NCBI GenBank assembly: GCA_004022145.1
Contig: RCNU01000004.1
Direction: 5' to 3' (one strand)
Length of the DNA stretch: 64,000 nt
Origin: Paecilomyces variotii
Lineage: Eukaryota
This document shows positions 5,450 to 17,537 of the stretch, piece by piece. Numbering within the stretch: the first letter of the stretch is position 1; every line of letters begins with the position of its first letter. The position numbers and the translations under genes were made by a program. The notes under the pieces are model-generated. The model worked only from the letters and a program-made list of their open reading frames with translations. It made no database searches and was not told the origin of the DNA.

Positions 5450-6835
5450 CTACCTCTCTGAAGAAAAACGAGCAGTGCACTCTTCTTTATATGCCTTCAG
5501 CTGCTCCATTTTTGTTTGTATAAATGACTCCATCTCTGCATGTGCCTTGTCGTCCAGTAACTCAACATCCACATCACCGTCATGTAGTGCAGCCCAATAG
5601 ATGGTGTCCACATCAAAGCTCTTTCTTGCTGCATAATCAAACCAGAAACGCCCAGTCCTCCATGATTCGCGCATCTGGGTAGAAAGAAGTGGTCTATCGG
5701 ATTGCTTGCGCCCTAATGCTGTTTCCTTTTCCACTTCTTCTAACGCTTGCAGGAACTGCTCCATTCTGGGCTCATAGAGGGCCAAAAATTCGTTCATAGA
5801 GCCGCGGTCAAGCCACATTTCTGGTCCAGATAGCAACAACCACCAAGGCGGGTCATACGTGAACTCGGCCGGCATGGAATTTGTGAACTCAAAATCGAGC
5901 ACAGCGGTAATACGGAGTGTTTCTGGGTTTACAAGCATGTTTGAGGGTCGCATGTCGTCGCAAAAGGGTATAAATGGCCCACTGTCCTTAGTACAGTACT
6001 TTGGGATAAGCTGTGCAAACCGATGACGGGCAATGAACCGCCACTGAGCTATTTCCGGATCATCGGCGAGGTTGCGCTGGGTCCAAAGGTGGGCCAGGTG
6101 CTCGTTCGCGACTGATCTCAGGTAATCGCTTGCACGGTCAAACCGTGCGGTAGGAAACTGACCATCAGGGTAGCCAGCAACAGTCACCAACTCGTTCATG
6201 TTGTATGTTAATGGCCGCCCGGCAACGTGCCATGTATCCGAAGCGTGATCCTTCGAGATGGCTCCGATGTGAGTAAACGTAAGTTGAGAAAGTTGAAGCA
6301 TGTAATAGGCGATTTGATGATAAATCTTTTCTAGTACTGTGTTGTCGATGTTTGGGTTTAAAACCACGTCTTCTTGATCTGGTTGCTTTAAGATAGTCGA
6401 CAAAAGCTCTCCATCAACATAATCCATGATAATAAATGGACCAAGTTGTTGTGGGCTCTCAGCAATTAAGCCCCAGCTGTGAATGCGAGGGACAGGAATA
6501 TCAGTGTTTTGGCGAAGGTATTCCATGATCTGGACCTCGTTTGTAACCTTTTCGTCCCTATAAGCTGTAGCCGTGTGTCCCGGTTTGGGGAATCGAATAA
6601 TAGCGTCCGGCCCTCCATCGCTGAAGCTGAAGCGGAAGCTGAAGTTGAAGGAACCCTTAAGAAAACCCACATACTTTCCAGTTCCCACTCCGGCTCGGCG
6701 ACTAGCAACAAAGATTGCTAATTCAGCCCTTGAGTCAAAAGCTTTATTTAACCAAGCCCTGCATTCATCATCACCGTTGGTCTCTTGTAACTCGTCAAAA
6801 TATGTCTTGAGTGACGATGTCGTCTGTGGCGGCAT
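5450..6835 (-). CDS. Aminoglycoside-phosphotransferase (APH)/kinase-like family protein, intronless, 461 aa
   Basis: GSFN glycine loop, IIRFPKPG, NEVQIM, IPVPRI, IIMDYVDG hinge, CDDMRPSNMLV catalytic loop and VLDFEF. Confidence 0.9.
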   Translation of the reverse strand: MPPQTTSSLKTYFDELQETNGDDECRAWLNKAFDSRAELAIFVASRRAGVGTGKYVGFLKGSFNFSFRFSFSDGGPDAIIRFPKPGHTATAYRDEKVTNEVQIMEYLRQNTDIPVPRIHSWGLIAESPQQLGPFIIMDYVDGELLSTILKQPDQEDVVLNPNIDNTVLEKIYHQIAYYMLQLSQLTFTHIGAISKDHASDTWHVAGRPLTYNMNELVTVAGYPDGQFPTARFDRASDYLRSVANEHLAHLWTQRNLADDPEIAQWRFIARHRFAQLIPKYCTKDSGPFIPFCDDMRPSNMLVNPETLRITAVLDFEFTNSMPAEFTYDPPWWLLLSGPEMWLDRGSMNEFLALYEPRMEQFLQALEEVEKETALGRKQSDRPLLSTQMRESWRTGRFWFDYAARKSFDVDTIYWAALHDGDVDVELLDDKAHAEMESFIQTKMEQLKAYKEECTARFSSER

Positions 6836-7883: not shown

Positions 7884-8704
7884 ATGCCGCACACCTCGCG
7901 GAAGAAAAAAGCCACTGCGCAGAAGCGCCTGGAGATCGCCGATGACGATGGCTGGACTCATGTTACTAAGGGCGGAAATGTCCCGAGAAGGGCTGTCAAG
8001 ACGGCTGAAGGGGAATTACTTCCAGCGGAACCGCCATCTCGGCTGACTATTGGAGAATTGAAAAAGCAGTACGAGGCGCATAGGCAGAAGTGGGACGAGT
8101 CGTCAACGAATGAGACTCTCAACCATGTACTACGGGAGCGACTTTCACAATCCATGAAGAATATAGACAATATCGTCTGCATAGGTCTCGGTAGTCCTAG
8201 CGGTTTTCTTCGCGGTGGATGGGTGGACCGCAGAAGCGTATCATTGTATCAGCTGGCGACTCTAGCTGCCATTGCTGGGCTCTTTGGTATGTCCTCCGTA
8301 AGTTTGCAATCGCCTTGCTATTCTGACAGCAATCTACCACAGAAACTCTTGATACACAGTCTGCTGCTGTGCAAGTCTTTGCCCAAGACCCCGTCTTCAA
8401 TGACTTTGATAAGGAGCTCTTGCAGTCCCTTGGAATTACCGTGGTCGAAGACCCGAAAGCTTTCGAGCTGGTTAACGAGGGCACCTTTTTATACTGTCCT
8501 GGAGCCGAGAGAGCTCATCTGGACCGTATACTTGCATCAAATCCCGCTATTCTATTCGGAGGGCCCCTTGACAATCTCTCTCCGGAGCAAGAAGTCCTAG
8601 CATCCTATGTTCAGACACGGAGCTCGTTGCAATTGCCTGCATTTGAGCCTAATGAGCATGCTTTCTGGAATATGCGCTTGTATTGGAAAGACGAGGACAA
8701 TTGA
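7884..8704 (+). CDS. SRR1 (sensitivity-to-red-light-reduced)/Ber1-like domain protein (2 exons)
   Basis: DDGWTHV, IVCIGLGS, SLYQLA and AQDPVFNDFDKELLQSLGITVV motifs. Intron 8287-8342 joins the two ORFs in frame. Confidence 0.88.
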
Positions 8705-10349: not shown

Positions 10350-10928
10350 ATGCAGTTCGAGCTACGCTTCGCTCATTTCAACGACGTCGTAAGTACATAC
10401 TTCAGAGTCAAAACCGAACCCTAACCCTACACATTCAACCAAACTCATACCTATCTGGCAGTATCACGTTCCATCAGCGGATCTACTCTCGCGTTTTTTA
10501 CACTTACAAAAATCCTTCCTCAAAAAAGAAATCACTGGCGATAATGGCCTAACAGTCTTTAGCGGCGATGGCTTCTCCCCATCGCTTGAAGCAAGTGTTT
10601 TGAAGGGCGAGCATATGGGACCGGTGCTTGATTTTGTGAACGTCGATATAGCATGTTATGGGAATCATGGTCTGATCGTTCTTTCTTAGCAAACGCGGAT
10701 TTCACTGAAGTACCTATTGCTGATGGGGCTAGATTTCGACTTTGGTGACGCGAGACTGAGGCATCTTTCGGATGGAGTTGATTTTCCTTGGGTGCTTTCG
10801 AACGCGTTTCACGAAACAGGAGGGCTCCTTGGTTGTGCAGAAGAGTATGTGATTAGGGAGGTTAATGGGGTTCGTGTTGGATTCTTCGGACTGGCAGGAA
10901 CGTATGTGATACGAAACAAACCGTCCTT

Positions 10929-10964
<36 letters not shown>

Positions 10965-12449
10965 ACCAATATCCAGTTCTGAAGGTGACGACAGCTCGCT
11001 AATAAGTAACAGAGACTGGCCATCCAACTGCGAGAATCTTCCTCCATCAACCATCGCGTCACCCGCAGAGGTAGCCAAACGAATATCGCGCCATCTCCGC
11101 GTAAATAAGGGATGCGATCTGATTATTGCCCTAACCCACATGCGTCTGGCCGAGGACATGGAGGTAGCAGACATGACAGCCTCTGGAGACGGTAAAGTAG
11201 ATTTATTCTTCGGCGGTCACGATCATGAGGTTATTCGACGATATGTCGGCGATACAGATTCAAATCCAGAGAATATTGAGCAGGGTCGCGACAATACAGA
11301 TATTGTTATTAATGGATTGGTTAATTATACCGAGGGGAATATCAGGATCATTAAAAGCGGAACAGACTGGAGAGGCTTGTCGTTAGTGCGAGTGGTTGGA
11401 CAGAAGGATGATAAGGGAGTTGCGAGTGTCTCTCATGTGGAGCGTAAGTATACCTACCTTAGGTACCTTAGTCAATGACCATTAGTTAACTATGGCTTAT
11501 ACCTACTGTACTAACAGACCGCAGTGAGTCAGTACACCGACATCGAGGCAGCTATCCCAGCCCCCGAGACATTCCCACCACAAATCAGTGAGGTTCTGGA
11601 ATCCATTCACAATCGCGTGGATTCACTAGTCCAGTCGCCTTTGGTGCATACATACACCCCTCTCGAGGGTCGCAGTTCAATTGTTCGAAGACAGGAAACC
11701 AATCTAGGCAATATGATTGCGGATGCAGTACGTGGATTCTACGATACAGATATAGCCTTCTTCAACAGTGGCGCGATCAGATGCGATCGTCTACTCGATT
11801 CATCATTACCAGGAGGTAGACCATTGCGAGTGAGAGATATTATCGGTAATACACCCCGGGCCAGATGGCTCAGTAACGAAGACTAGAGACTAACAACACA
11901 GATATCTGTCCATTCGACAACGCCCTCATTGTGAAACGAACCAGCGGCAGAGTTCTATACCACGCCATAGAGAACTCCCTCGGGGACATGCACATGGACG
12001 GCCGTTTCCTCCAAGTCTCAGGCCTGCGTATAGTAGCCACATGGAAAAAGAAAGCCGGTGAGCGCGTCATAGATATCTTCTTATTCATCGAAGGACCCGG
12101 GACAACAACAACAACAACAAAGCTAGAGAAAATCGATCCTTCTCGCATGTACACAGTCGCTCTTGCGGGATTTATTGCTCGTGGTTATGATGGGTATACG
12201 ATGTTTCCGGAAGAAGAGACGATAGTGAATGAGGAGGCTGCCATGACAGATACGAGTCTGATGCTTCGGATATTTGGACATGGCGAAGAGGAATCGGATG
12301 GAGATCGATCGAGAAATGACCATCATGTCAAGGGCGTTGAGAGGGCTAGGAAGAGTATAATTATTGGAAGGAATGATTCGGATGGATTGCCAGTTGTTAA
12401 TCCTAGAGTGGACGATAGAATCAGATTTATTGATTATCCTGCTTTGTAG
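10350..12449 (+). CDS. 5'-nucleotidase (metallophosphoesterase plus 5'-nucleotidase C-terminal domain), no signal peptide (6 exons)
   Basis: HFNDV|YH, FSGD, YGNH|DFDFG, ALTHMR, GGHDH, ETNLGNMIADA, NSGAIR and GRFLQVSGL motifs. Exons 10350-10388, 10462-10669, 10733-10901, 11013-11443, 11525-11845 and 11902-12449 are phase-consistent. Confidence 0.92.
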
Positions 12450-13431
12450 AAGATATACAGTTATACATAAGACAGAAAGATAAAGTAGCTTGATAACTTT
12501 GGGATATGCTTCGATATAAGGATGTCTGACTCTTTTCCAAGTAAAGTGCCAGTTTACTACGGAATCAAGGTTTATTACATATATCTATCAATCTCTGTAC
12601 CGGGTGAAAACCTGTCGAAGACCAGCCAGATCTCACCCTTCAGACATACATAATCCATCCGCACAAAAAAAGAGTACCTAAAAGTCAAAGTTAACCAATA
12701 CACCAAAAACCCCGCTGCAATAATACCAGATCGTCAAGTCTCGCTTTATCTTCAATGATATCTCCCCCCAGATTTCTTTACAGAGATAGATAGACAATAG
12801 CCCGCATAAGGGTCGATTCCAGCTATATACTACGTAGCAGCTAGTTATGCATTATAATACCCCTTCATTGGTTCCTATGTATCTTCCTGTCTTGCTCCGT
12901 TTCTGGTATCTCATGTATTATCTACCAAAATCTCGGAGTCTTCGATCAGAAGTGAGGGACCAGAAGAAAAACACCACTCCCGATAACTATTCTTGCATTC
13001 GGTTCTTCCCGAACCGAGGAATCAGTCACAGATGCCCATGTCGTCAAAACAATAAGTAAAGAGATCCATAGGAAAACGAAACCATTAGTGTTTGTCAATC
13101 ACACCGTATGCGCCAGGCATCCACTACCTGATGATGAAAAACTCGCTGAAGTAAAAAAAGAGTCGTATCACACACAGCCGTAGAAAAGGAGATGAGTCTA
13201 CCGCAGCCATCCATTATAACCATCATCAGAGAAACGGTGACAGACAGGAGTGCGGGATAAGGGAGGTGAAATGAAAGGAGAAATATATCATCAACCGCCG
13301 TCAAGATGCATGCTTGTGGGAGGAGAAGCATGCATCGGTCATGCTCGCTGGAGATGCACCAAAGATAGAAACTCGAACTCAACGCGCCGAGCCGTAAATC
13401 GCGGTCCTCTTATACCTGTAGCAAGATCTGG

Positions 13432-13545
13432 ACCGGGTTTCCAGTAGCATAGCGAGACCATCAGATCTCACTTGCCCCCAATTCCTCACGGGCCATACTA
13501 GATCTTCCACCAGTCATCAAATACTGCGAACTCAGGTAACTCTTG
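13432..13545 (-). pseudogene. Decayed remnant of the BtgC GH17 C-terminus
   Basis: Reading on in the same frame past the TAG gives QELPEFAVFDDWWKI*YGP*GIGGK*DLMVSLCYWKPG. This resembles the GH17/BtgC ending FEAFDEPWK...WEDKWGLMD..R.LKPG as I recall it, with three internal stops. Confidence 0.7.
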
Positions 13546-13581
13546 AATCACCAGGTCGGACGTTTCAATATCGACCGTGGT

Positions 13582-14724
13582 CTATGTTGTTTCGCTATCA
13601 CCGCCGTTGACGTCTGTCTTGCTGTCTTTTCGGTTGCCGTAGACACCACCCACGGCACCCCCGACAATGGCTCCAATAATGATGATACCGAGGACAACAC
13701 CGACAATCCATCCTTTCTTTCGGTTTCCATCACCCCGTCCTCGGGCATACTCGCTCTTATAGCCGACTTCAAGCCCGGAAACTTGGCCATATGGTGATCC
13801 GTTGGAAGCGCCAGATCGCTGCGCCTTTTTTCCGAATGCGCCCGCCATGCCTCCTCCTGCCGTGCCATTAGTTTCAGCGGGCAAGGCTTCGCTGGATCGA
13901 AAACCCAGGGGCAGCATCGATTTCCGTTGAGGCGTTCGGAAAATGTCGTCATCGCCATCATCCGCAATCTCCTCGGCGTTGATCATCATCGGGTTGACAG
14001 CGGCACCGTAAGCCGACTGTCTCTGATAAGGACCATCGTACCAGCTTCCTGTACTCGGATATGATGGGTAATGATCGATCAGACTCCGTTGGGAGGGATT
14101 CGTCGTTGGTGTGAGATGCGGCGTGCTACCTGCAGGACTGACATGTCCTGCCGGCATAGCGGCTGCCCCTAGGGGAGAATAATTGGAGGCGTAGGAGTCC
14201 CGTGGTCGTAGCGGTCCGAGCGAATCGTGACTGGGGCAACTGGGTGTTGATGGAACATATGGTGTATCTGATGCTGTGTTGGCGTTGATGTTGGTGTTGA
14301 TGATGGTGTTGTTGTTATTGTTGATGTTGTTGTTTTGGCTTCGTTCGGCCGGCCCAATCCACCGACCGTTCACCGGACTCTGTATCTCTTTCGTGGCCTC
14401 GAGACCACTTTGACGTTCGTTATTGCCAGCGACTCCCAGGGCGATTCCACTGATACCACCGCCTGCAGCTGTGGCCCCCAGGTTGTCCATCCCCGGCGTC
14501 ACCGTCGTGTTTGTCCGCACCGAGGGCGAGTGTGCCAATTGTCGAGCTGACTGCAAGGCTGGCTCGCCGTGAGGAGGCGGTGCAGGAGGCACGGCAGACG
14601 CATTCCCAACGATGGGGGCGGCCGTGAGAGCATCATCGGTCCCCTGGGGCGCTTCAGCGGCCTGGTTGCTCTGGAACCGTTCCTCCCCAGGTTCGAAACT
14701 GAATGACCGGTGGGTACCGGACAT
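13582..14724 (-). CDS. btgC: BtgC-like type II membrane protein, C-terminally truncated (GH17 catalytic domain absent)
   Basis: 380-aa ORF with BtgC-type N-terminal motifs (TPGMDNLG..AAGGGISGIALGVA..NERQSG, INAEEIADDGDD) and TM segment RKKGWIVGVVLGIIIIGAIVGGAVGG. It stops about 18 aa after the TM. A degenerate GH17 C-terminus lies just downstream. Confidence 0.8.
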   Translation of the reverse strand: MSGTHRSFSFEPGEERFQSNQAAEAPQGTDDALTAAPIVGNASAVPPAPPPHGEPALQSARQLAHSPSVRTNTTVTPGMDNLGATAAGGGISGIALGVAGNNERQSGLEATKEIQSPVNGRWIGPAERSQNNNINNNNNTIINTNINANTASDTPYVPSTPSCPSHDSLGPLRPRDSYASNYSPLGAAAMPAGHVSPAGSTPHLTPTTNPSQRSLIDHYPSYPSTGSWYDGPYQRQSAYGAAVNPMMINAEEIADDGDDDIFRTPQRKSMLPLGFRSSEALPAETNGTAGGGMAGAFGKKAQRSGASNGSPYGQVSGLEVGYKSEYARGRGDGNRKKGWIVGVVLGIIIIGAIVGGAVGGVYGNRKDSKTDVNGGDSETT

Positions 14725-17537
14725 GCCTGTTGACGACGACGGCCGAGCGCTTTATTTATCACAAATAATGATTCCGCGGAGGTATGCAAGGCAGGATGAC
14801 AGTCCTTTCTTTTTTCTCCCCTTCGGGAATGCGTGCCTGCAGCGTGGGCTGTCTCATTCAAAAAGGGCTATCTGGATCGCCGATCCGGACGGAGTTCAGC
14901 TCGATGCCACGACGGTGACAGCTCACCTTCAGCGCCCAAATGTGTCGTTGATTGAATCCGCGTTGTGGTCTTATCTAGCTGGGGGGGGGGGGGAAGAGCA
15001 AAAAGAGAATATCCCCTGTTGAAGCGCGAAGTTACACGGTCGGGGACGTAGGAGAGAGTTCAGAAGAAGAAAGGTTGCCGGGTCGACTAGTTTATCAAGC
15101 AGGGACAGTGACTATCAGCTGGCCCTATCTATGGCGAGCGCGAGCAGGAAGGTGTCAGTGCGATTGATGGCGGCTGGAGTGCATCAACCCGATGTGTCTG
15201 TCTGCGACAAATTCCCTGCCACCGTCTTGCTGCCGTGAAGATCGCGTTTCGAAAGAGGTGCGGGGGAAAAACACCACCGGGGGATCCTCGACTCTAGACT
15301 CAAAATGGAGAGGAGAGATGATCGACCCCCAAGAGTAAGTAAGTTAATTACTTCTAGGAATTGGAAAAAGCAGGGAAAAGACTAAAAAAGAAACGAAAGA
15401 AGAAAAAAAAAAAAGAAGAAGGTCCAAAGAAGAGAAGAGAAACGAGTGTTGACGACGAGCTGGGATGGCTTCTCTGCATCCGGCTTTTTTGCCAGGGACG
15501 CGGATGGGGCTGAACCTCAACCAAGCCTTTGTTGGTCTGTGTTTTGCCAGGGAATCGGATAGGAGAAAGATCATAATAATAATAATATGGTAGATAGTTA
15601 TCGCATGGGAGCTATGGCGAGAACTAGTGGCTTAGCTCGTCAGCTAAAGTTAGTAACTGGGAACTGGTGAGTTATTCGCCAGTAACTAAAGTAGTTAGAT
15701 AGATAGTAAGACAAGATATTGTGATCATTATTATTATTATTCCTCTTCGTGGATCTGAAATTCTGAACTGGATTTAGTTATCTGGAAGGAAAAACAAAGC
15801 TTTCTGTCGCACTTTCTCTTTACTAAAATAATAAATTGAAGTATAAATATAAATAAAAATAATAATAATAACAATAATCACAATAAATAAAATATAAATA
15901 AATGCCCAAGGCCGGCGCCTCGCACGTGCCTCAGTCCGCTCCCGGCCGACCGGCTTCGGGTCGCTTCGCTGTGCTTCCTGTGGCTTTTCGGGACCAGAAA
16001 ACCATGCCATGACCATCGCACAGAGACAGGAAAACCTAGGCAAAGCCACTGACCTCAGCCCGCTGCTGGTTGGTATTTATTGGTATATTATTACTAGAAG
16101 GATTATTACATAGGTAACTACTAATTACAGAGTAATTAAATTATGGTACTCTGTGCTACATAGATCTCGACGAATGTACATACATACATACATGCTGGGT
16201 TTCGTCTGTGCTTAGAAGAGGATCTAATAGGATAAGCTTCTTTTTTTTTTCTTATCAGTATGATCATATAACAAGAGAGTATTGTAACTACTCTAGTCTC
16301 TAATTAATCAACCAAGTGTTCTAAGCAAGCAAGTTAGTTGGTTACTCACTGACTGCTATCTTTATCTCATGCAGGACCCCACCACTGCACCAGTCTAACA
16401 GGTTCCACCGCTGTCAAGACTCAAGAGTCAAGAGTAAGAACACACTACTACAATTTTCGCTACTCTAGTCTCTGCACATCCACTTCCCAATTAAGAGTGT
16501 CCAGCAGATTACAGAGCATCAAGTCTGTCTCTTGCCTGTTTTGCGCGTACCATAGGACTGATCGGGTGGCCGAGAGCGGAAATCGTAAACGGCAAGGTAC
16601 TGTATGGTATGTAATACTGTAGATAACTAGAAGAATCTCGAAAACCCCAAAGCAACTGAGTATGGTAAAGACTACAGCTGCAAGTCAGTCAACGAGCCGA
16701 ATTCACCGTCTCTGCATTCACGCTCGCTAGTTACAATCTCACTGATAACACATACACGCCAGCGAAGAGAGACCAGACAACCTGCCCTCTCTCATCGAAT
16801 TCTTTTCTTTTTCAATATCGGCCTTCTCCACACCGAACTTCAACTCGCTTTCTTCCACCAAACCACCCTCCTTCTCTTTCTCGCATAATAATAAATAGTA
16901 ACAACTAAAGAAACAGAGAACCGAAGAGTCCTGTAGTAATCTGACCATTTCGCCCTTGAATCCCGAACAGGTGGTTTCCATCCACCGCTGACTCCCATTC
17001 CATGTACAATGCCATATCCGTCAATGCCATCGATACAAACATGTCCATGCGACCCGAGAAGAACAAGGTGCTGCTATCCCATCCATCACGCCAAAGGAAC
17101 AGACCCATTATGCTGCCTCGCATGTTGGCCTCCCTCGTATATCTCACTCCGGCCCATCAATCCTTCCGAACTTTTGCTGTCTCCAGCCGCATCCTGTCAA
17201 TTTCCCCACCAATAACCCCCCAAAGCCAGAGGGGTCTAATCGCACATGAAAAAAACATCATACAAAATCGAACACAAGAGGGTATAAACGGTAAGGACAG
17301 ATATTGTACATCCAAGTCAATAATAACACGAACTGTAAGGGAAACAATCGGTAAAGACGGAAGAAGTGGTATCTTAAGGGCACCGTGGAATGGTAAAAGG
17401 GGGCCAATAAGGAGAAACAAAGGAGAAGAGGTAAAACAAAAGAAAATTTGGTACACAGTCTCCTGACTTGCGACGGTAGCATGCTCAATTGGCCACAGCC
17501 ATCGACGGGCACTTCAGGAGTACTCCAAAGCCAGGCC

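Follow-up and report, generated by a model that had tools for sequence, protein, structure and literature searches.

Features of the locus

The window analysed here is the whole stretch of 64,000 nucleotides from Paecilomyces variotii contig RCNU01000004.1. On its minus strand lies a gene derived from btgC/Bgt3, recognised from the list of open reading frames (ORFs) together with homology. Its features are the following:

14725..14978, minus strand: probable 5' UTR; in both RNA studies the contigs end at 14977/14978, a weak hint
13582..14724, minus strand: retained btgC/Bgt3-derived ORF of 380 aa, TAG stop codon at 13582-13584 included
13723..14724, minus strand: residues 1-334, the cytoplasmic part, intrinsically disordered by prediction and containing short conserved blocks
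14272..14344, minus strand: Asn-rich repeat of the (AAC)n type within the ORF, residues ~131-151 (NNNINNNNNTIINTNINAN), which differs in length among strains and among species but stays in frame throughout
13639..13722, minus strand: single transmembrane (TM) helix, residues 335-362 (WIVGVVLGIIIIGAIVGGAVGG), from hydropathy and AlphaFold, with the GAIVGGAVGG motif common to the full-length family
13585..13638, minus strand: exoplasmic tail of 18 residues, a remnant of the linker between the TM helix and the GH17 domain (DVNGGD versus VNGDLD in the family)
12848..13581, minus strand: 3' UTR of the present mRNA, from RNA contigs, containing the fossil and with poly(A) sites at ~12887 and ~12848
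13426..13560, minus strand: decayed fossil, very probably genuine, of what were the final ~55 residues of the GH17 ectodomain, lying in the frame of the ORF, with three stops and three in-frame gaps, weak by profile HMM

Downstream, and convergent with the btgC stub, a 5'-nucleotidase-like gene occupies 10717-12449 on the plus strand. PF02872 is found there in two ORF pieces, and the gene is probably split by an intron. Its stop codon is ~400 nt from the poly(A) sites of the stub, and ~1.1 kb separate the stop of the stub from the nucleotidase gene. Other neighbours are an ORF of the APH-type phosphotransferase family (5450-6835, minus strand) and an SRR1-domain ORF (7884-8600, plus strand). 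In addition, a C12 homopolymer (14981-14992, minus strand) lies directly upstream of the RNA contig ends at 14977/14978.

The encoded protein

The 380-codon ORF contains zero internal stops, and 18 residues stand between the helix at 335-362 and the TAG. This confirms the starting observation of a sequence-only reading of this DNA, namely a clean frame of 380 codons that stops about 18 aa past the TM. Only one segment of the protein is strongly hydrophobic (Kyte-Doolittle peak 2.8, residues ~339-358). According to hydropathy and predicted structure, the N-terminus is hydrophilic, the single TM is internal and no N-terminal signal peptide is apparent. AlphaFold2, run with a family alignment of 107 rows, gave the helix 335-362 as the sole secondary-structure element. 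The residues before 335 were modelled without secondary structure and with a mean pLDDT of 50.7, mostly below 60, and the Atlas model of the ORF protein was concordant (pLDDT 0.40). The cytosolic position of the N-terminus would follow from the type II layout of the BtgC family. Within this region, the conserved cytoplasmic blocks are TPGMDNLG..GGGISGIALGVA, GPAER, PYVPS, DGPYQRQSAYG and IADDGDDDIF, and the Asn-rich repeat has differing lengths among P. variotii strains, whose proteins measure 380, 379 and 370 aa.

General searches were poorly informative about the protein. In the Protein Atlas the feature matches, to clusters from Ascomycota, were weak (0.89-0.91), and the structural matches stayed below a TM of 0.25. 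The single Pfam match of the ORF was DUF7856, with an E value of 0.28, and it was taken as noise.

Homology with BtgC/Bgt3 and loss of the GH17 domain

The search for longer proteins yielded 49 relatives of 666-2000 aa at E<=1e-3, most of them with PF00332. The best full-length relatives, which include Aspergillus proteins of the 686-aa class, are ~40% identical over 91-100% of the query. Nearly all the full-length relatives belong to Eurotiales and are named btgC, cell-wall glucanase or GH17. The match covers their N-terminal half, continues through the TM and goes no further. The ORF had been read as the cytoplasmic and TM half of BtgC, and this identity to Aspergillus proteins that bear PF00332 establishes that reading; by sequence, btgC (BGT3 in A. 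fumigatus) has its Paecilomyces orthologue in this gene, and it belongs with the type II membrane glucanases of GH17 group V.

The protein of A. fumigatus, Bgt3/BtgC (AFUA_5G08780, 688 aa, P0012), and its Eurotiales orthologues have the N-terminal conserved blocks in common with the stub. The TM motif GAIVGGAVGG, a start of the form MSG...SF and the lack of a signal peptide are also common to A. fumigatus Bgt3/BtgC and the stub. In contrast, the stub lacks the entire GH17 (PF00332) ectodomain together with both catalytic-glutamate motifs. With no GH17 domain and a chain that stops 18 residues past the TM, the stub is unable to act on glucan.

Concerning the A. fumigatus gene, PMC3627985 describes AFUA_5G08780 BGT3 as a GH17 protein of 688 aa. 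In PMC5872321, Bgt3 is the sole GH17 member of A. fumigatus without a signal peptide and forms a separate phylogenetic group, and the deletion of BGT3 decreased conidiation by 20% and lowered the long-term survival of conidia. The equivalence of BtgC and Bgt3, and the detection of the protein in plasma-membrane-derived vesicles, are given in PMC7426166. In A. nidulans, btgC is listed among the conidial-integrity genes targeted by WetA.

The absence of the GH17 catalytic domain is borne out by several searches. Pfam gave no match to PF00332 in the ORF at E<=1, seven full-length orthologues used as tblastn queries had no match in the 64 kb past the N-terminal half, and a full-family HMM run on the read-through translation reported the TM region alone. 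With the family profile and tblastn taken together, what is left of GH17 is a broken C-terminal remnant of ~45 codons. Counted along the A. fumigatus protein, what is retained extends to approximately residue 366-370 (the VNGDLD linker motif) and the fossil begins at ~626, so that ~255 residues (~370-625) are missing. GNE (489-491) and SEVGWP (589-594), which we take to contain the catalytic residues, are both inside the missing interval. The conserved glutamates of the A. fumigatus GH17 proteins, as given in PMC5872321, are one basis for this assignment. The flanks of the gap align in BtgC order, which agrees with the earlier proposal that an internal deletion took most of the barrel.

A fossil C-terminus behind the stop codon

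When the ORF is read through its stop in the same frame, seven codons (TTVDIET) are followed by a fossil of 45 codons, and the read-through goes on as SDLVIQELPEFAVFDDWWKI*YGP*GIGGK*DLMVSLCYWKPGPD. The string quoted from the sequence in the first place, FAVFDDWWKI*YGP*GIGGK*DLMVSLCYWKPG, is present in the frame of the ORF from the 18th codon after the stop, and the alignment of the fossil reaches 10 codons upstream of it (SDLVIQEL versus SDWVCQAL). The three stops of the fossil are at 13498-13500 (TAG), 13486-13488 (TGA) and 13468-13470 (TGA). As read from the alignment, the family codons are one transition from two of the three (Q to TAG, W to TGA).

The C-terminus of BtgC had been given correctly in that reading, as the fetched orthologues end in ...FEAFDEPWK..WEDKWGLMD..LKPGLKIPDCGGKTA and the family consensus is SDWVCQAL...FEAFDEPWK...WEDKWGLMD...LKPG..PD. 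The remnant aligns to it in the same order, both with eight orthologues and with the consensus of 59 complete family members. Smith-Waterman scores of the read-through against the eight orthologues were 37-49, reached by 0-17 of 1000 shuffles. Against the consensus, 21 of 45 positions are identical, with in-frame gaps of 6, 2 and 3 codons, and the score was 55. None of 5000 shuffles reached this score, nor did any of 4686 background chunks (81 codons each, from the six frames of the 64-kb window); the best chunk, at 54 versus 55 for the fossil, was the low-complexity Asn-rich repeat of the ORF itself. Translated in its other two frames, the sequence downstream of the stop scored at noise level (25-27). 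The C-terminal profile HMM matched the FEAFDEPWK block alone, and weakly (E 0.02-0.05). The fossil is accepted because it appears at the expected position, in the expected order and on the expected strand, and on these alignments it is very probably real.

The ORF and the fossil share one frame, and the lesion was therefore in-frame overall. The presence of the fossil behind the stop also means that the GH17 domain was destroyed in place, which bears on a possible gene fission or compensation, that is, the persistence of the ectodomain function in a full-length paralogue or in a stand-alone secreted GH17 protein of the BtgC type. The Rasamsonia BtgC ectodomain was used as query among proteins of 386-1229 aa, and in the best 120 of 1737 matches the ~104 rows with an organism name (counted by hand) include no Paecilomyces, Byssochlamys or Thermoascus. 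The same rows do contain orthologues, at 67-72% identity, from Onygenales, Chaetothyriales and Dothideomycetes. A stand-alone ectodomain of fewer than 386 aa, or a copy ranked below 120, would fall outside this scope. Within the best 120 of 1737 matches at 386-1229 aa, the search speaks against the presence of a full-length paralogue among Paecilomyces proteins, and together with the fossil it makes compensation very unlikely.

Truncated relatives in Paecilomyces

The same truncation occurs in sister taxa. Ten complete truncated proteins of 357-380 aa were found, with P. variotii strains, P. lecythidis and strain No. 5 among their sources. One of them (P0051, 371 aa, P. variotii No. 5) is 83% identical to the ORF protein and is annotated as btgC, and another (P0052, 357 aa) is 65-72% identical. 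The members of the cluster, with at least 10 accessions, include proteins of 380, 379, 380 and 370 aa from P. variotii DTO strains, two of 369 aa from P. lecythidis and a further one of 372 aa. An exhaustive search of representatives gave no other close relative, and the next matches, ~44% identical, are full-length. Regarding their architecture, the truncated P. variotii and P. lecythidis database proteins are the same as the ORF, at 83-100% identity, and those from P. variotii No. 5, the DTO strains and P. lecythidis are annotated as the enzyme (btgC) or as hypothetical. The truncated form is thus already in public proteomes. In full-text literature searches, no account came up of the missing catalytic domain or of what the BtgC N-terminus does.

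All ten complete proteins (10/10) end 12-22 residues after the TM. The alignment of the truncated proteins comprises 11 sequences, one of which is a fragment, and at least 15 length differences, counted by eye, are every one in frame. A scan of JGI metagenomes with an alignment of three truncated proteins as query gave 109 pattern matches, of which 0 were confirmed.

Two further observations were made among these proteins. The protein of P. variotii DTO271G3 (P0205) is 92% identical to the ORF protein, compared with 99-100% in the other strains, which suggests a cryptic lineage within the P. variotii label. Three other candidates for independent truncation, P0160 (341 aa), P0167 and P0175, look partial or mispredicted and were left uncounted. 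P0160 is a BtgC-like protein from another lineage with 88 residues after the TM that are not GH17-like, and it may represent either another loss, independent of the one described here, or an error of gene calling.

Transcription of the gene and continuity of the junction

Of the 24 public runs listed, 20 contain the stretch, and 9 studies are represented. The RNA data are assembled cDNA metatranscriptome contigs from two runs of different studies, and they inform about presence, not level. Among four runs aligned to the stretch, these two gave contigs, and one RNA run (X15) and one DNA run (X11) gave 0 records, which can be an effect of filtering. Contigs of the first run (X17) cover 12887-13632, with 0 differences, and 13603-13903, and those of the second (X19) cover 12848-13304 and 13431-13724. 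The listed contig cover excludes 13904-14344, which does not count as evidence of absence, and the Asn repeat is skipped at 14274-14344. The stop codon is bridged by X17 12887-13632 and by X19 13431-13724, and the former spans the whole fossil. At 12887 and 12848 the contigs end in a non-templated T13 (plus strand) where the genome has no A-run, and these ends are therefore poly(A) tails on the minus strand. Hence, the gene is transcribed and polyadenylated, and this was seen in both studies. The mRNA is ~2.1 kb long, unspliced where covered, with a 3' UTR of ~700 nt that includes the fossil, and its translation would yield the 380-residue protein.

The sole difference between the contigs and the genome, T>C at 13715, changes K337 to R, and R is the residue in other strains and species. 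At 14425-14507, summed contig depth rises to ~4270 in both RNA runs, and a loose end at 14458 is adaptor-like. This peak probably comes from contigs that are chimeric or belong to other organisms and that match a conserved or low-complexity stretch; as an expression level it is unusable.

The truncation could in principle be an artefact of assembly or annotation, in which the GH17 part had collapsed out of the assembly or was joined by splicing. No evidence in support of it was found. Over 13540-13600, where the earlier reading had asked for reads, the junction is bridged by RNA contigs; the contigs of the two studies cross both stop and junction with no splice joint found in them and without differences. 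In DNA-type data, 14 rows from several studies contain 0.96-0.98 of the sampled words of the stretch. Moreover, independent assemblies of many strains and species lead to the same product of ~370-380 aa, and merely ~1.1 kb is available between the stop and the convergent 5'-nucleotidase gene. The probability of an artefact is, on these data, practically negligible.

Constraint on the retained half

All the tests of constraint were carried out at the protein level. At the columns of the N-terminal half that are at least 90% conserved in 59 complete BtgC proteins, three truncated proteins taken as representatives retain 48/52, 48/52 and 46/52, whereas the fossil keeps 13 of 35 family-invariant positions. 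In a wider set of 124 sequences the truncated proteins keep 42-43 of 46, inside the range of the full-length proteins (5th percentile 0.85, median 0.98).

The maximum-likelihood tree of the N-terminal halves, built with 27 rows after 7 of the 34 chosen ones (including all Talaromyces and Rasamsonia) were dropped for mismatch to the TM pattern, placed the truncated proteins in a clade with 100% support. Path lengths summed from the Eurotiales node are 0.57-0.63 for the truncated proteins and 0.39-1.15 for the full-length ones. The former fall within the range of the latter, and thus there is no acceleration.

Inside the truncated clade, 15 of 88 columns that are at least 80% conserved in the family are variable, versus 42 of 91 columns conserved below 50% (Fisher p=2.9e-5). 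In the cytoplasmic part without the TM, the counts are 14/74 versus 40/88 (p=4e-4). The site constraints of the full-length family are, as far as these alignments tell, still operating after the loss of the enzyme.

These data bear on the possibility that btgC is a dying pseudogene in Paecilomyces, a neutral relic in which the 1.1-kb ORF is open by chance. The catalytic domain is gone, and the mild phenotypes of the A. fumigatus deletion make a loss of the gene plausible. However, the rate of stops in the fossil (3 in ~50 codons) predicts ~20 in 380 codons, and 0 were observed; together with the invariant sites kept, 48/52 in the ORF and 13/35 behind it, this shows that the contrast between frame and fossil first noticed in the DNA is real. 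A unitary pseudogene would carry lesions and evolve neutrally throughout, which is true of the fossil and false for the 380-codon ORF. Furthermore, ten diverged variants, down to 70-72% identity to the ORF protein, are intact and show in-frame indels alone, a count to be read with an ascertainment bias, since the relatives are products of gene callers and frameshifted alleles would stay invisible in them. Substitutions in the clade avoid the family-conserved sites, and there is no acceleration of the rate. A neutral relic is for these reasons quite improbable.

A second possibility is a maintained stub whose role is new and unrelated to ancestral BtgC, or which acts mainly as a regulator, for example as a dominant modulator of membrane proteins. 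The stem branch of the truncated clade, which is fairly long (0.43), and clade-specific invariant blocks such as DDDIFRTPQRKSMLP speak for it. On the other hand, the sites conserved in the full-length proteins are those still conserved after truncation, and retained ancestral interactions therefore fit better than a new function. We regard a new role as unlikely.

Hence, the selection on a non-catalytic membrane protein that the sequence-only reading had suggested is supported by a clade-wide truncation, site-specific constraint (at the protein level) and transcription. The explanation that we consider likely is that btgC lost its GH17 domain in an ancestor of Paecilomyces and that the retained half, which is expressed and under purifying selection, persists as a non-catalytic membrane protein.

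Proposed origin and role of the truncated protein

In other Eurotiales the btgC product is a type II protein made up of a disordered cytoplasmic region of ~330 aa, one TM helix and, beyond a linker, a GH17 domain that is extracellular and modifies beta-1,3-glucan. An internal deletion, in-frame overall, in the ancestor of the sampled Paecilomyces lineages would have removed ~255 codons. A single common deletion is proposed from the near-identical protein ends. What had been the final ~55 codons and the 3' UTR of the old gene would then have become the 3' UTR of the new mRNA, where neutral decay would follow. The remaining stub would likely serve as a scaffold tethered to the membrane and work by way of short linear motifs, and it would retain the cytoplasmic interactions of full-length BtgC, for example with the trafficking, cell-wall or conidiation machinery.

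To our knowledge, fungal cell-wall GH17 enzymes have been studied almost wholly as enzymes. The long cytoplasmic region of BtgC/Bgt3 is, as far as we know, unique among GH17 members, and we know of no role assigned to it. The genus dropped the enzyme and keeps and transcribes a constrained cytoplasmic and TM half; nature thereby offers evidence that this half does something in its own right. It might even be that, across Eurotiomycetes, the disordered region of ~330 aa and the TM of BtgC/Bgt3 together form a functional module that is autonomous, a generalisation to which we give slightly less than an even chance. If it is true, Paecilomyces would represent a natural separation-of-function allele, in which the ectodomain is dispensable and the tethered disordered region is not, and part of the phenotype of the Aspergillus bgt3/btgC deletion (conidiation, spore survival) may be enzyme-independent. 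The family would then consist of a membrane scaffold or signalling protein that usually bears a glucanase, and not the reverse. An enzyme-independent role of BtgC/Bgt3 becomes directly testable.

Pseudoenzymes and glycoside hydrolases with domain loss are similar to the stub in that a member of an enzyme lineage is kept without catalysis. The stub differs from pseudoenzymes in that the catalytic fold was deleted outright, not point-mutated, and what was kept is a disordered non-enzyme region.

The loss may also have changed how the protein reaches the membrane. Tail-anchored proteins have a single C-terminal TM and are inserted post-translationally by a GET-type route. The stub has the same layout, with its bulk predicted to be cytosolic and N-terminal, one TM less than ~30 residues from the C-terminus and, here, 18 residues after the helix. 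Unlike them, it derives from a type II signal-anchor protein, and for it the post-translational route is a prediction. Since the TM is now less than 20 residues from the C-terminus, insertion as a tail anchor is probable, and the co-translational signal-anchor route would probably have been exchanged for the tail-anchor route. The gene would thus offer a clean example of how a type II membrane enzyme can become a disordered protein of tail-anchored-like layout.
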